IMG/VR virus record: IMGVR_UViG_3300032038_000059
Span: 9,297-73,296 of that record
Direction: 5' to 3' (one strand)
From: a virus
Lineage: Duplodnaviria; Caudoviricetes
DNA length: 64,000 nucleotides
Shown: one piece after another, positions 3,503 through 48,824 of the stretch
How the letters are laid out: the number at the start of each line of letters is the position of its first letter
Numbering within the stretch: position 1 is the stretch's first letter
Notes under the pieces: generated by a model
Database searches by the model: none
What the model saw: only the letters and a program-made list of their open reading frames with translations
What the model was told of the DNA's origin: nothing
Position numbers and translations under genes: made by a program

Positions 3503-3835
3503 TCAATCTTGTGATTCCTTGTGGGCGTGAACCGAATTCCTGATTCGCTCTGCCATCAACTCACGCTCCTTGTCCGAAAATTCACGGTCTACGATATTTA
3601 CTTTGATCGCTTTGACCGGGAGTGTGGCGATCAGCACACCATTCTTTTCGGATTTGATTTTCACATCATCCGGGAACTTCTCTGCAAGTCTTTTTACCTT
3701 GGTGATGTATTTCACTTGTGTAAAATTAACAGTGCAATTCTCATCACCATTCGTCCAGTAGATAGCATTTTCCCTGAGATCACCACTATCCGTAAAATTG
3801 ATTTCATCATTACTGACTTTTTCGAATTCCGTCAT
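3503..3835 (-). CDS. Conserved hypothetical phage protein
   Basis: ORF with RBS (AGGAGA); ENAIYW...TVNFTQ motif. Confidence 0.7.
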   Translation of the reverse strand: MTEFEKVSNDEINFTDSGDLRENAIYWTNGDENCTVNFTQVKYITKVKRLAEKFPDDVKIKSEKNGVLIATLPVKAIKVNIVDREFSDKERELMAERIRNSVHAHKESQD

Positions 3836-3849
3836 TTTATCTCCTCACA

Positions 3850-4285: not shown

Positions 4286-5002
4286 TTATAGATCTATACT
4301 CTCACCCCTGTGGGCGATGTTAACATTTACATTGTCACCGCAGACTTCTTTAAGTTCACTCAGGATTTTTTTCTCGTCTGCATACTTGTCAGAAAGATGA
4401 CAAGCGATGACATTTTTACATTTGTCAGAAATCGACTTTTCCAAGAAGTTTTTGACAACTTCCAAACTACTGTGACCGCGCAACCTGTGTTCCCTAGCTT
4501 CGTCATTCAGATCGATGTCTTCTGAGTGATTTACGGCTATCAGGAAATGATTTATTTTCCATGTTTTGACGGTAACTGGAATGTATTCGAAGTCGGTAAC
4601 ATAAAGTAATCTCTCGCCATTATCAAACTCGATGATGTACCCGGAATTCGGAGTATCTTCATGTGGCACTGGAATCGGGATGACTTTATAGTGACCGATG
4701 ATTCGAGTTATCTTGTTTGATGACAGACTCCGCACATATTCTCCAGTTATTATTTTGAGGTTTTTTGCAGTTCTATCTTCTGCATATACCGGGATGCCGT
4801 TTTTATTGAAATGGCGATAATACTGTGCGTGATCGCCATGTTCATGAGTTATCAGGCAAGCGTCTATGGCACTCACCCGAAACCCACAAGCAATTTGTAC
4901 ATCTTTCCATTTCATCCCGGCATCAAGTGCGAGATAATGACCGTCATTTTCGATTACATAGCAGTTACCGTTGCTAGAACTCCCTAGAACATGAATTTTC
5001 AT
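4286..5002 (-). CDS. MBL-fold metallo-hydrolase (YycJ-like); true start at 5002
   Basis: MKIHVLGSSSNGNCY, LITHEHGDHA (HxHxDH), PHED, RGHSS, ACHLS. Confidence 0.9.
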   Translation of the reverse strand: MKIHVLGSSSNGNCYVIENDGHYLALDAGMKWKDVQIACGFRVSAIDACLITHEHGDHAQYYRHFNKNGIPVYAEDRTAKNLKIITGEYVRSLSSNKITRIIGHYKVIPIPVPHEDTPNSGYIIEFDNGERLLYVTDFEYIPVTVKTWKINHFLIAVNHSEDIDLNDEAREHRLRGHSSLEVVKNFLEKSISDKCKNVIACHLSDKYADEKKILSELKEVCGDNVNVNIAHRGESIDL

Positions 5003-5834
5003 TTTTATTTTCCTTCCTTGCAGACCAGTAGAAGCCACCTGCTTTATAACGAAAATTGCTATATGCCGCCCTTGCAATGTTTCCTTTGTTGATTGATGTA
5101 ATTTTATGTGCTTCCAAAAATCCATTAAACTCATTCACTATATTCATGTTGGTATCGTATTGCGTGACCTTTATTGTTTTTGATTTTTCTTTTGCATATG
5201 AATCATTACTAGAAGCATACTTGCTAATCAATTCCCTTTGAAGGCAACCACAGCTTTTTGATCTTCCAGAAGTTAAAGACCAAGACTTTACCTTCTTTTC
5301 ATTTCCACAGTCACACCTACAATTCCACACTGCACATCTTTCATATCCGGCAAAAGATAATACAGTCCATCTTCCAAAACGTCTCCCGGTTAAGTCAGTT
5401 GTGTTATATCCGCTTGCCACTACTGGCTCATCTATTGCTCTGTTTTTCAATAGACGTTTTTGCAATGTTTTTTCATTTATTTCCAATAGTTCCGATAATT
5501 GAGCGAGAGTATATTTCTTTCCCTTATATTCAATTATTCTGTTGTTCCTCTTGTTTGACTGTTGTTGCTTGTTTGTAATCCACCTGCAATTAGATGGGCA
5601 GTAGCAGTTATTTACATCTATTCTGTCTAAAGTTAAGTTATCATTGTAACCGTTGTCTAAAGCCCAGTCTCTAAAAGTTATGTAAGAGTTCTTCCACTCA
5701 TCACATACAACTATGCCCCTACCACCGTAATTACCATATTTTCTTCCTTTCTCGTAATAGCACCTAGCTTTCATATTTAGCCAAGATTGGTATAATCTTG
5801 TATTGCTTTCTCCGTGCCATTCTCTTTTCTTCAT
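4974..5834 (-). CDS. Free-standing HNH homing-endonuclease-like protein with CDCG and NUMOD1-like domains
   Basis: RLYQSWLNMKARC...YGGRGIVVCDEW...TLDRIDVN..YCPSNCRW; DLTGRRFGRWTV...WNCRCDCG...SKSCGC; C-terminal VTQYD...KAGGFYW. Confidence 0.8.
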   Translation of the reverse strand: MKKREWHGESNTRLYQSWLNMKARCYYEKGRKYGNYGGRGIVVCDEWKNSYITFRDWALDNGYNDNLTLDRIDVNNCYCPSNCRWITNKQQQSNKRNNRIIEYKGKKYTLAQLSELLEINEKTLQKRLLKNRAIDEPVVASGYNTTDLTGRRFGRWTVLSFAGYERCAVWNCRCDCGNEKKVKSWSLTSGRSKSCGCLQRELISKYASSNDSYAKEKSKTIKVTQYDTNMNIVNEFNGFLEAHKITSINKGNIARAAYSNFRYKAGGFYWSARKENKNENSCSREF

Positions 5835-6775: not shown

Positions 6776-6798
6776 ATAATCTCCTTTCTTAAATGTGT

Positions 6799-7233
6799 AT
6801 CATGCACCTAGAAGATGATTTGAATTATGCTGTTCTGTAGTGTTCTTTTGTGATAAAGGCTATGCTAGACAGTTCATTCAAACCATCATTTAGATGCACG
6901 ATGTTATTGTCCTGTCATTTCTTGCGGTTTCATGTTATGATAGTTATTATGTTTTCCTATTATGTAATGGATGCTTCATGCACCCGGAAAACAACTCGTA
7001 TTGTAATATGCTATTTTGTCGTGATTTGACCTGTGGTAAATTAAAGTGTCAGATCGTGTCGTAAACAACACAAGTTGTCATCTAGATGCATGAAAGCCCG
7101 TGTGCTTAAGAATGACTATAAAAGCCATGTCTTGCGATATATTGTTCTGTCCTGTCGTGTTCCGCGCTGTTGTGTCGTTTAGTATGCTATTGTTTGTTCT
7201 TATGACTCTTACAGCCACACCTCAACACACGGG
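6799..7233 (-). ncRNA. Pentamer-repeat guide-like array, downstream part (4 tracts: 6816-6875, 6903-6972, 6997-7071, 7128-7192)
   Basis: 5-nt periodicity T(G/A)TNN on + strand (NN-AYA on the gene strand), 12-15 units per tract, flanked by inverted repeats such as CCCGTGTG/CACACGGG. Confidence 0.85.
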
Positions 7234-7244
7234 CGAAATATTAT

Positions 7245-7877
7245 TTATGCTTCAACATTTGATACATGGAATCTTCCGTAACCAGATGTTCTTCCAGAAC
7301 CAATTCCACTACCGAAACCTGCGAGGTTAATCACATTTACAATCTGCTCAATTCCGTAAACATTCTCCGTATACTTAATAGTGAACGTTGCGCTCCACCC
7401 GGAAAAACGATTAAGGTGAACCAGAACAGGTGCTCCACGCTTCGGAGACATCAGCTTCTCGTCAATAAAGTGATCCGTAAACTTAATCGGGATAAGCCCA
7501 CCAGTTGCAACGATATTCAGTGCAGAATCCATTTTTGTGGAGTAAGTATCAATTCCGTTTCTGACAACTGCTGCGAGAATAGCTTTCTTCAGCCCGAATG
7601 CGGTGATGCATGGAGCATTATTCTGTAAAGCATTGATAAGTGCTTCTTCCGTAAATTCTTTCGGATAGCCATCTCTCCAGTGCATAGCCGTAATAATGCA
7701 TTCCCATTCATTCGGCTTCTCTGTTGACTTCGCCTTGTCTTTGCGCTGATCTGTAAGAGCACGAATTGTCGGTTCGTTCATTTTATTCAGAACCAGATCG
7801 CCATCGCCCTCAATTGTAATTATTGCAGTATTAACCTTAATCTCCTTTAATTCGATTGCCTGTTCCTTCTTTGCCAT
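7245..7877 (-). CDS. Small Cas7/RAMP-like protein (VIPR-like effector candidate)
   Basis: N-terminal ITIEGDGDLVLN strand, F.GWSATFTIKY strand, C-terminal glycine-rich loop AGFGSGIGSGRTSGYGRFHV typical of RAMP folds; sits between pentamer arrays. Confidence 0.8.
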   Translation of the reverse strand: MAKKEQAIELKEIKVNTAIITIEGDGDLVLNKMNEPTIRALTDQRKDKAKSTEKPNEWECIITAMHWRDGYPKEFTEEALINALQNNAPCITAFGLKKAILAAVVRNGIDTYSTKMDSALNIVATGGLIPIKFTDHFIDEKLMSPKRGAPVLVHLNRFSGWSATFTIKYTENVYGIEQIVNVINLAGFGSGIGSGRTSGYGRFHVSNVEA

Positions 7878-7942
7878 AATTTTTCTCCTTTTGTTTTTAA
7901 TTAATTAATTGATATTGTGTTGTGTTGTTCGCGAATAAACAC

Positions 7943-8718
7943 AATTACAGACACTTCTGAAATCCTATGTAGTAAGCTGTCCTATATTATGCTTTATTGA
8001 ATTAAGCTGACCTTTCCTTTTGATTTCCTATCCTGATATGTCCTACTACGGGAGAAATGCCCGTAATTCTATCTATTCGCTTTATACGCTTAATTAACGG
8101 AGTAAGGTATGCTGTAGTATGCTTATTTATGCTGTTGCGTCATGATCTAAACTGTCATAACATACGGATTACTCCGTTAACTAAATGCATATATCATCCG
8201 CTCAACAAGCAACACTGTCTTCGGCTATGCTGAGTTATAGTGCGTTGAATTGACCTGTATTTTCCTACGCTTGGCAATGTTGCCAGTAGAACGGACGATA
8301 ATTTATTTTGTTCTTAATTGAAATCTAGGATTTTATCATTTAGTGTTTTGATTTGATATAGAGCAAATATGCGCTCAACTAGCGATACGAACTTTTGCAA
8401 TGTCCTATACTGAATTTGTCTGCGCTAAAGTATTCTTCGCTGTTGTATGACTATCATGAAATATCGTTAGCTATTTCGGCTCATATCGCCGGGTGAACGC
8501 ATATTGTTTTATACTGTTTTATATTGTTAAAACGTATTCCATAGAAAGCTGTTCTTTCCTGTAATATTGTTGAGCAATTGGCTCGGAAGATGATGCAATG
8601 TTATGTTTTGTGATATGCAGTATTATCATGCTGTTTGTTGTTGCGTCATTCTCTTTGGGATTCTATCTTGTTCTACATGGTGCAAAATCTATTACACCAT
8701 CATCAGAACCAACCGCTC
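7943..8718 (-). ncRNA. Pentamer-repeat guide-like array, upstream part (7 tracts: 7968-8048, 8103-8167, 8216-8275, 8299-8368, 8386-8461, 8500-8569, 8599-8678)
   Basis: Strict 5-nt phase, e.g. tgtct tcggc tatgc tgagt tatag tgcgt tgaat tgacc tgtat tttcc tacgc ttggc; stems such as TTAACGGAGTAA/TTACTCCGTTAA; most stem mismatches become G-U pairs on the minus strand. Confidence 0.88.
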
Positions 8719-8726
8719 AGATACAT

Positions 8727-9221
8727 TTATGAAACTCTTAAAAACTCATCAATAGCTTCAATCACAGAATCAAGTTCCGTTAATCGCTGATATCTATTTT
8801 TGATACCTTCAAGTTCAATCTTTGCCCGATCCAGAAGCTTTTCGTATTCATCTTTATTCTCATAAAAGAACTTCACAGGTTTGTATGTACCTGTTCTAGA
8901 ACTGTCTGCTTCAACTAAGCGAAAAACAGTTTTCTCTTCTTCTTTAGTTTCAGGGTCTTCCCGAATAAGGACGAAATTCTTTACAAGACGTTGAGCCTGA
9001 ATCACACGATACTTTTCAGAAGCTACTTTGTTGTCCCATTCAAAGTAGTTATGCATCGCAGACTTCTTGTTTCTGGCGAGATCTACGATATCTGAAAGCG
9101 TTCTACTTTCACCGTCTCCGTAGATTTCATCGTAAGTCTTCTGCGGATCAATCCCTTTCATAATTCCCGGAAGTTTCCACCCGGCTTTCTGTGAGAAACT
9201 CCACACCGTATTTCCTTCCAT
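8727..9221 (-). CDS. Conserved phage protein next to the RAMP/array locus (candidate accessory factor)
   Basis: MHNYFEWDNKVASEKYRVIQAQRLV motif; immediately upstream of the array. Confidence 0.7.
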   Translation of the reverse strand: MEGNTVWSFSQKAGWKLPGIMKGIDPQKTYDEIYGDGESRTLSDIVDLARNKKSAMHNYFEWDNKVASEKYRVIQAQRLVKNFVLIREDPETKEEEKTVFRLVEADSSRTGTYKPVKFFYENKDEYEKLLDRAKIELEGIKNRYQRLTELDSVIEAIDEFLRVS

Positions 9222-47866: not shown

Positions 47867-47938
47867 CAGCCCTAGTCAGGATCGAACTGACGCATCTGGC
47901 AGTCAAAGTGCCATACCTTACCACTTGGTTATAGGGCA
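47867..47938 (-). tRNA. tRNA-Gln(TTG)
   Basis: Full cloverleaf: GCCCTA/TAGGGC acceptor, TGGCA-CTTTGAC-TGCCA anticodon arm, GTCAG-TTCGATC-CTGAC T arm. Confidence 0.88.
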
Positions 47939-48082
47939 TTGGGCGAGTTTCTGAAACAAGAATGAATTGTCATCATTACAGTGCTACCGACACAAGTGTA
48001 GCCAACTTAGTTTCAGCATTTTTATTCTCTTTGAGGGCTATCTCGCAATCCTCTCAAATCATCCGGGTGCGACCCGTCCTCA

Positions 48083-48143
48083 TCGGAACGGTAGGATTCG
48101 AACCTACGACACAATTTCCTCTAGCCAACTGAGTTACGTTCCG
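48083..48143 (-). ncRNA. tRNA-Pro-like RNA lacking the anticodon arm
   Basis: CGGAACG acceptor, D arm and GTAGG-TTCGAAT-CCTAC T arm are intact, but only about 8 nt lie between the D arm and the variable region. Confidence 0.65.
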
Positions 48144-48277
48144 AAATGGGCAGTCCATCCAAAGTTCGGTTCCAGTTGTCCTCCCTCCGTAGGATTATCT
48201 CCATCCCAATAACGGTAATGGCTTCACGCATTTCCCTTGTGAAAAATTCACTGCCCTGTTAGTATTTCATTTCTAAG

Positions 48278-48389
48278 TGGAAGCGGAAGGATTCGAACCT
48301 TCGTTTTCTGATGATGGGTCAGACTGTTGCCATTGACATACTCTAACAAGCACATCACTCTTGTGCCATTTGTCTACACTTACACTCCC
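48278..48389 (-). ncRNA. tRNA-like RNA (CAT loop) with a ~38-nt insertion between the D and anticodon arms
   Basis: GGGAGTG/CGCTTCC acceptor, TCTGA-CCCATCA-TCAGA arm, GAAGG-TTCGAAT-CCTTC T arm. Confidence 0.55.
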
Positions 48390-48737
48390 ATTACTTTGAC
48401 TTTAACCTATTCTCTGGAACTACTCTTGCTTATGAGTATATTCGACCCCAATCACAAGAACTGTGATGCCCACTATCCCATGTCTTCCGGCATCTATAGT
48501 AGCGTTCCACATATCCATCGTCTTATGGACTTTGTGGCAAGCTGTCTCTTGTGTAATGTATGCATCCGCCACACATTTGCATTGTCAAAAATTTAAGATT
48601 AACTGGCGGCGGTCTTGGCCTTCGACCACACTTTAATGCTCATTAACAAACCAGTCTCATGTATGTCGATCCATTCACAAGGCATTCGTTGTACACCAAA
48701 CGCCGCCATACACGTTTACAAGCTACTGCTTGTAAGC

Positions 48738-48821
48738 AATCCCGTCAGGAGTCGAACCTGAACCTCTCCAAACCACGGAGTGAACTACTAGTCTAATCCG
48801 GTTTCCATTATTCTACGGGAT
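48738..48821 (-). ncRNA. Degenerate type II tRNA-like RNA
   Basis: ATCCCGT/ACGGGAT acceptor, long variable stem CTCC/GGAG, TCAGG-TTCGACT-CCTGA T arm; non-canonical anticodon loop. Confidence 0.5.
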
Positions 48822-48824
48822 TAA

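Follow-up and report, generated by a model that had tools for sequence, protein, structure and literature searches.

A run of short repeats at 8386-8461 in the DNA of a temperate phage raises the question of what such a tract does and, if it carries information, at what it is directed. It lies within the 64,000-nt stretch analyzed here (the window), in a gene-free interval of 849 bp (7878-8726) between a 210-aa gene (7245-7877, minus strand) and a 164-aa gene (8727-9221, minus strand). The surrounding early/recombination module encodes an SbcC-like ATPase, RecT, an MBL-fold hydrolase, Ant and an XRE repressor with an M78 peptidase. The explanation that best accounts for the whole of the evidence, and in which we place good confidence, is that a VIPR system encoded by the phage uses the tract as the programmable segment of one of its vrRNAs, aimed at an XRE gene of competing phages. 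The underlying mechanism is already in print (VIPR, a CRISPR-like system first described in 2026), and the clade represented in the window is non-canonical. In VIPR, the Vipr protein, a small lone RAMP with one RRM, a G-rich loop and a thumb, polymerizes on vrRNAs of 9-16 pentamers, conceals the fixed GGY triplet of each unit and presents its variable dinucleotide (NN); the presented dinucleotides pair with double-stranded DNA following a '1-nt skip rule', by which every third target base is skipped (10.64898/2026.04.26.720920). The natural targets reported there are other phages and satellites, often their lysis/lysogeny regulators, and the vrRNAs described in the VIPR preprints measure about 100 nt and are recovered together with Vipr upon purification.

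Read on the plus strand, the tract at 8386-8461 consists of the units TACGA, ACTTT, TGCAA, TGTCC, TATAC, TGAAT, TTGTC, TGCGC, TAAAG, TATTC, TTCGC, TGTTG, TATGAC, TATCA and TGAAA, 14 of the 15 beginning with T and ACTTT being the exception. The period is strictly 5 nt, TATGAC (8446-8451) is the sole 6-nt unit, and phased printing thus reproduced the repeat that an earlier note on this DNA had described. The plus-strand pattern T-R-T-NN corresponds to NN-A-Y-A in RNA sense, i.e. on the minus strand, where the dinucleotides read (TT TG) TC CA GC GA CT GC GA AT GT GG TT AA TC. Rereading of this strand confirmed both the list of dinucleotides given earlier and its decoding into codons. The gapped reading behind that decoding, in which two bases of each codon are taken and the wobble base is passed over, coincides with the published 1-nt skip rule; the earlier note had in effect arrived at the VIPR code from the letters. 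From the 13 dinucleotides then regarded as the guide, the 11 inner ones are retained, whereas the first and the last TC fall outside the guide proper. The guide region is accordingly placed at 8391-8445 (minus strand), where eleven NN-A-Y-A pentamers carry the series CA GC GA CT GC GA AT GT GG TT AA, an assignment based on pentamer phase and on the 22/22 target matches described below.

In RNA sense, the predicted vrRNA starts with the 5' arm of a closing stem (8505-8481), continues with two mini-hairpins (8480-8446) and the eleven clean pentamers (8445-8391) and ends with the 3' arm (8390-8366). The two arms (8481-8505 and 8366-8390, minus strand) form the inverted repeat I5 of 25 nt with 80% complementarity, and the 3' arm, which pairs with the 5' arm, holds TCGTA, the last unit of the tract as delimited in the earlier note. 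The mini-hairpins appear in the MFE fold of the 5' part of the loop (8446-8480, minus strand), which comprises six degenerate pentamers including the 6-nt unit. These six units (8446-8476) were also considered as an extension of the guide, an idea that was rejected, as 3/12 bases match upstream of the target site on contig L010, which is chance level.

About 11-12 such pentamer tracts with 5-16 units each occupy both flanks of the 210-aa gene. The upstream array (7878-8726, minus strand) holds approximately seven, with stem-closed loops alternating with inter-stem tracts, and the downstream array (6776-7244, minus strand) holds four. Eight tracts are loops closed by imperfect stems of 23-33 bp. 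Among 143 units from 12 tracts, read in RNA sense, A occupies the last position with a frequency of 0.88, a pyrimidine (C/T) the fourth with 0.82 and A the third with 0.66; the three triplet positions carry 0.62, 0.39 and 1.29 bits of information, compared to 0.06 and 0.01 bits at the two NN positions. Related loci display the same layout, with A-Y-A/NN tracts beside the gene. By a plain Fourier score of T at period 5, the region did not stand out from the remainder of the window, an Rfam search gave no match in the array region, and blastn and tblastn searches against cultured phages found nothing related to the locus or to Vipr.

The closing stems indicate the transcribed strand. In the seven clear ones, the minus strand gives 30 G·U pairs and 12 mismatches and the plus strand 4 G·U pairs and 38 mismatches; stem I5 itself has 20 Watson-Crick pairs, 3 G·U pairs and 2 mismatches on the minus strand versus 20, 1 and 4 on the plus strand. 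Because the non-Watson-Crick positions of the stems are G·U on the minus strand, we infer that the vrRNA is transcribed from this strand, in the same sense as the 210-aa gene. Transcription of the plus strand, which would yield U-G-U/NN repeats resembling the published YNNNG pattern, is disfavored by these G·U pairs as well as by the gene-sense GGY/NN repeats of canonical relatives.

The 210-aa gene (7245-7877) encodes a lone Cas7-like RAMP protein (P0001) and is designated vipr on the basis of profile searches, a structural model and Foldseek comparisons. A family profile built from 80 members (alignment A1) matched one solved structure in the PDB, 36pp_D ('SUSP1 Vipr protein'), with an E value of 1.8e-14 over 185 residues; P0001 alone gave an E value of 1.2 against the same entry. 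In phmmer searches, P0001 joins the canonical Vipr clade with E values of 1e-19 to 1e-8, and its Pfam search returned a weak match to RAMPs only. The family is large, with 2293 matches among 90% clusters and 527 among 50% representatives. An AF2 model of P0001 computed with the alignment reached a pLDDT of 96.9 (single-sequence: 38), and its best Foldseek neighbors are Cmr4, Csm3 and type VII Cas7 proteins with E values of 2e-6 to 1e-4. Profile and predicted structure identify the 210-aa protein as a homologue of Vipr that adopts a Cas7-like fold; hence, the locus is assigned to the VIPR systems.

Within the Vipr family two clades can be distinguished by the G-loop, which reads G(E/D)WR in most members, as in SUSP1, and GSGR in the clade of the window (P0001 residues 187-203 in alignment A1). 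The GSGR clade also differs in its thumb motif and is accompanied by A-Y-A/NN repeats, whereas the G(E/D)WR members on L040 (3179-3417) and L042 (3152-4124) have GGY/NN repeats next to the gene and in its sense. In SUSP1 Vipr, D177 and W178 hold the two guanines of GGY (VIPR preprints; structures in 10.64898/2026.04.26.720927). The alignment columns of D177, W178 and R138 read S, G and L in P0001. Since the guanine-holding residues are replaced and the triplet is A-Y-A, binding of A-Y-A RNA by P0001 is proposed here by analogy. The paired change of GGY to AYA with G[DE]WR to GSGR provides a lead to how Vipr reads its scaffold. Somewhat speculatively, the A-Y-A/NN clade could mean that the scaffold letters of VIPR are re-specifiable by few changes in G-loop and thumb (D-W to S-G), with the guides chosen against near-invariant motifs.

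A further component may be encoded by the 164-aa ORF (8727-9221, minus strand), which is located between the SbcC-like ATPase gene and the vrRNA array and, by synteny, is a candidate vipr-accessory (vap) gene. It adjoins the array in all relatives examined (L001-L003, L006, L007, L009 and an ENA contig). Its only PHROG match is phrog_15946, a family of unknown function, and no Pfam match was obtained.

If the NN series is a guide, it should recur with one skipped base after each dinucleotide in foreign DNA. The pattern CA.GC.GA.CT.GC.GA.AT.GT.GG.TT.AA with its 22 specified bases was fixed before the searches and gave one exact match in each of three collections: L010 among the IMG/VR viral contigs (the scanned pattern ended at TT, and the AA unit also matches), L012 in the JGI metagenomes, which is the same gene as in L010 on another contig, and L011 in a 596-Gb genome collection, an XRE gene of Mucilaginibacter. 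All three are in frame in genes for XRE-type HTH proteins and occupy the same position of the fold (KLKQADLAEMVGLKQPAISRIEN and RLKQAELAEIVGLNS), where they encode QADLAEMVGLK and QAELAEIVGLN. The absence of in-frame hits in XRE genes had been named beforehand as the outcome that would refute the guide; the reverse was found. The site encodes Q-A-(D/E)-L-A-(D/E)-(I/M)-V-G-(L/F)-(K/N), i.e. the part of the XRE/HTH_3 domain that runs from helix 2 through the turn into the beginning of helix 3, and the database matches thereby agree with the XRE helix that had originally been decoded from the letters. In L010, the target site (3811-3842) matches at 22/22 bases and spans codons 52-62 of a protein that hits HTH_3 with an E value of 1.5e-10. 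Against cultured phages, this XRE target gave only a weak match to a Pseudomonas phage.

These searches also bear on the idea of a chance resemblance, according to which one of eleven tracts merely happens to decode into an HTH-like motif. XRE motifs are indeed very common, and the decoding had many degrees of freedom. Set against this is the fixing of the pattern in advance: about 0.07 matches (2 x 5.96e11 / 4^22) would be expected by chance in the 596-Gb collection, yet matches were obtained in three collections at the same HTH position. Moreover, two controls on the IMG/VR viral contigs, with the dinucleotides in reversed order or with a 2-nt skip, gave 0 matches each, and shuffled guides reached at most 18/22 on G001, the record of the L010 phage, and on G002, a complete relative of it. 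Coincidence is therefore the least probable of the explanations weighed here, and a vrRNA guide directed at XRE genes is the reading we pursue.

The orientation of the matches further specifies the type of pairing. In every match, the NN series of 8391-8445 runs in the sense of the XRE coding strand, so that pairing is possible only with the template strand of the DNA and not with the mRNA. Consequently, it would be very surprising if the vrRNA were an ordinary antisense regulator of XRE mRNA instead of a DNA guide. The tract is unstructured and presented in the loop of a stem-closed RNA, as might be expected of an antisense element; a minus-strand transcript has the wrong sense for pairing with this mRNA, though, and pairing at two bases in five has no precedent in the absence of a Vipr scaffold.

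The guide is not directed at the phage that carries it. The best match within the window is 15/22, short of the 80% NN match that would count as self-targeting and inside the range of shuffled guides (mean 15.5), and no site with up to 3 mismatches exists in the 73-kb record. When aligned at the HTH, the repressor of the phage itself shares 13/22 bases and four whole dinucleotides, the latter as counted before. The proposed heterologous target, a repressor or cro gene of another phage, holds insofar as XRE genes of other phages match; to call them repressor or cro genes would be a further assumption. Likewise, the suggested consequences, forced induction or blocked lysis of a rival, would be an extrapolation from published experiments with lambda cI/cro.

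A second guide of the upstream array, at 8221-8275 (minus strand) with the NN series GC GC GG AT GG AT AC CT AC GC GC, behaves in the same manner. It has 42 exact 22/22 matches in IMG/VR, all of them in frame at AAG[IM]GITLTAA in SNF2-like helicases of phages with GC contents of 0.28-0.66. These 42 in-frame matches argue that the 1-nt skip rule holds for the A-Y-A clade. This tract had also been read separately in an earlier note, and the SNF2-like helicase matches support that reading.

Selection on the presented dinucleotides is suggested by a comparison of the window with L004 and L005, which are 91-92% identical in this DNA (tracts within 7968-8678). In L004, all 22 NN bases of guide 8391-8445 are unchanged, and in L005 a single one differs, which belongs to the last unit and adjoins a 1-nt insertion. 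Otherwise, this guide shows only a C to T transition at the Y of one triplet (position 8422). Over all tracts, the final A of the triplet is changed at 0/153 positions, while the Y position is changed most often (21 times, including 17 C/T swaps). Apart from the L005 base just mentioned, NN changes occur only in tracts 8299 and 8500, which lie between stems, and in tracts 8599 and 7968, which are closed by stems, and the clean stem-closed guides 8391, 8221 and 8108 retain their NN series. Near-constant NN combined with a drifting Y may thus be read as a sign of selection on the guide. No homologous guide was found in the more distant Vipr loci L001-L003 and L006-L009.

These data also address a simpler view of the repeats, in which the tracts are protein-binding arrays whose NN are neutral spacers without targeting information, as in TRAP-type sites. 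Their layout as triplet plus 2-nt spacer, the 11-16 units per tract and an information content of about 0 bits at NN would all be compatible with such an array. Neutral spacers, however, would not spell conserved protein motifs in frame, nor give 22/22 XRE matches in three collections and 42 exact SNF2 matches against 0 in the controls, and the NN of the stem-closed guides 8391, 8221 and 8108 would hardly stay nearly unchanged among 91-92% identical phages while Y drifts. The TRAP-like array fell when the NN strings matched coding motifs, and we consider it highly improbable. The NN series are hence treated as guide sequences in what follows.

Which XRE gene is the natural target can be narrowed down to two groups. 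The only perfect match in a phage, and thus by sequence the best candidate, is the XRE gene of a jumbo-phage lineage (records IMGVR_UViG_3300008255_000160 and 3300031957_002643). L010/G001 is a 52.9-kb fragment of an uncultivated jumbo phage (16% complete), and its relative G002 is a complete genome of 335,552 bp with terminal repeats, in which the XRE homologue (77% identity to the L010 gene) matches the guide at 20/22 bases. In L010, the gene belongs to a co-directional operon with genes for a gyrase A-like protein, an AAA ATPase and a DUF2201 protein, which is not a classical immunity switch. The other ten guides gave no match above shuffled controls against the whole records G001 and G002, and the locus is therefore without a guide convergence of the kind published for SUSP1. 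The share of Shine-Dalgarno-like sites is lower in the jumbo phages (0.27-0.33) than in the window phage (0.65), and no DNA shared between the window phage and the candidate target phages was found, for which reasons a common host is a conjecture. In addition, the XRE gene of the unrelated Mucilaginibacter also matches at 22/22, so an 11-unit guide to a common fold cannot by itself name the natural target.

With the first nine units as the pattern, the number of matching contigs rises to 24, all in frame at QA[DE]LA[DE][IM]VG and about 14 of them XRE genes; the full 11-unit match is confined to one lineage among 2.9 million viral contigs, and guide 8391-8445 therefore appears to be specific to a lineage and not broad in reach. 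Five contigs of 43-46 kb (L087, L090, L093, L102 and L107, two of them from isolate genomes) match at 19/22 bases (86%) with the first nine units contiguous. In L087 (3410-4995), the XRE gene (80 aa) overlaps the start of a gene for a 448-aa serine integrase in an operon-like arrangement. XRE genes in the lysogeny module of such Firmicutes-like temperate phages appear from their sequences to be the second-best candidates. Conceivably, the mechanism is the same but the guide is naturally directed at an XRE regulator in the lysis/lysogeny module of a temperate phage with the same host, and the jumbo-phage match is a look-alike in a common protein fold. The 19/22 match exceeds the published threshold, since VIPR targets are defined as gapless matches of at least 80% of NN, with the skip on the wobble base, in coding sequences of other mobile elements. 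The neighboring serine integrase fits this reading, as do the GC content and the share of Shine-Dalgarno-like sites, which are closer to the window phage (0.40 and 0.65) in the temperate set (0.40 and 0.71) than in the jumbo phages, and in the published P. fulva clade the vrRNAs are mainly aimed at lysogeny-lytic regulators (10.64898/2026.04.26.720920). On the other hand, units 10-11 fail in these genes, a perfect match exists in another phage lineage, and the temperate set shares no DNA with the window phage either. On balance, a temperate-phage target is a real but rather doubtful option, and the jumbo-phage XRE gene is retained as the leading candidate.

The proposed mechanism would then proceed as follows. 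An RNA presumably made from the minus strand, in the sense of vipr, would serve as a scaffold on which Vipr protomers polymerize, by analogy to the SUSP1 structures one per pentamer, each holding A-Y-A and presenting NN. The 11 presented dinucleotides would pair with double-stranded DNA in which they recur at intervals of one skipped base. As one base is skipped per dinucleotide, the skip falls on the wobble position of the codons. Binding of the Vipr-vrRNA complex, again by analogy, would block transcription of the XRE gene and the genes downstream, and thereby handicap the competing phage. More speculatively, guides of this type may target near-invariant motifs such as the XRE helix-turn-helix and SNF2 motif V, so that one 55-nt guide could cover many unrelated phages including jumbo phages and would leave no escape through synonymous mutation; for guide 8391-8445, the few matching contigs point the other way.

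The closest published counterpart is the type II VIPR of SUSP1 and a Pseudomonas fulva prophage. Both systems feature a lone small Cas7-like Vipr gene flanked by guide arrays, guides of 9-16 units with a fixed triplet and hypervariable NN, a 1-nt skip on the wobble base, and targets in other phages (often transcription regulators) without self-targeting. In contrast, the triplet of the window is A-Y-A instead of G-G-Y and the G-loop GSGR instead of G(D/E)WR. Its guides often lie in loops of 23-33-bp stems, whereas those of the SUSP1 type precede a conserved 3' tail with a pseudoknot; its host is Firmicutes-like, and the system is known from sequence alone. None of the published repeat consensus patterns, i.e. 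GGY/NN (YNNGG), NNNGG, YNNNG and NNNNG, fits A-Y-A/NN. A later preprint based on a genomic language model allows other triplets (10.64898/2026.10.21.760802), and the locus is for this reason filed as a non-canonical VIPR and not as type II. In the part of that preprint available to us, arrays of GAC/NN, CAC/NN, WGT/NN and TGH/NN in 21 clusters are described, which, like those of the window, combine a 5-nt period and a non-GGY triplet with a neighboring Vipr-like fold. Among them, TGH/NN equals the array of the window read on the plus strand (T-G/A-T/A/C-NN). The same part gives the patterns without strand or target analysis, whereas for the window a strand is assigned and the 1-nt skip is supported in silico.

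Parallels also extend to the crRNA-Cas7 filaments of Class 1 CRISPR systems (Csm3/Cmr4), in which proteins of the same fold bind RNA with one protomer per fixed step and base pairing is periodically interrupted, as in VIPR. The step there is 6 nt with 5 pairing bases versus 5 nt with 2 pairing bases in VIPR, and the window is without a CRISPR repeat-spacer array, other cas genes or an adaptation module. The solo or orphan vrRNAs of satellites and VIPR-null phages (10.64898/2026.10.15.759431) represent the same kind of guide RNA and likewise act in conflicts between mobile elements. The guide of the window differs from them in adjoining its own vipr gene and in being aimed at an XRE gene instead of at vipr or a decoy site.

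In silico, the 1-nt skip rule of the published systems thus also covers a divergent VIPR clade with another triplet and a Firmicutes-like host, and more scaffolds thereby become available for programmable DNA binding. That a temperate phage carries a guide matching a regulator gene of a 335-kb jumbo phage suggests that prophages may exclude jumbo phages by means of guide RNAs. On a practical level, gut and rumen phages contain 'empty' stretches of 0.5-0.9 kb next to a small hypothetical gene, and such stretches can now be annotated.

Two other regions of the window deserve a brief description. The MBL-fold hydrolase (4286-5134, minus strand) is encoded downstream of RecT, and its relatives, including the one at 4678-5460 of L006, weakly match the Anti-Pycsar Apyc1 family; instead of a nuclease for recombination, it may be an enzyme of counter-defence. 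An ORF resembling HNH/NUMOD1 homing endonucleases (4974-5834, minus strand) lies between RecT and this hydrolase and overlaps the start of the latter, whereas in the relative L006 the hydrolase follows directly after RecT with no such ORF in between. Finally, two tRNA callers agree on a tRNA-Gln at 47867-47938 in the region 47867-48822 (minus strand), where a weak tRNA at 48278-48347 is called by Rfam only and a tRNA-Thr at 48736-48822 by ARAGORN only.
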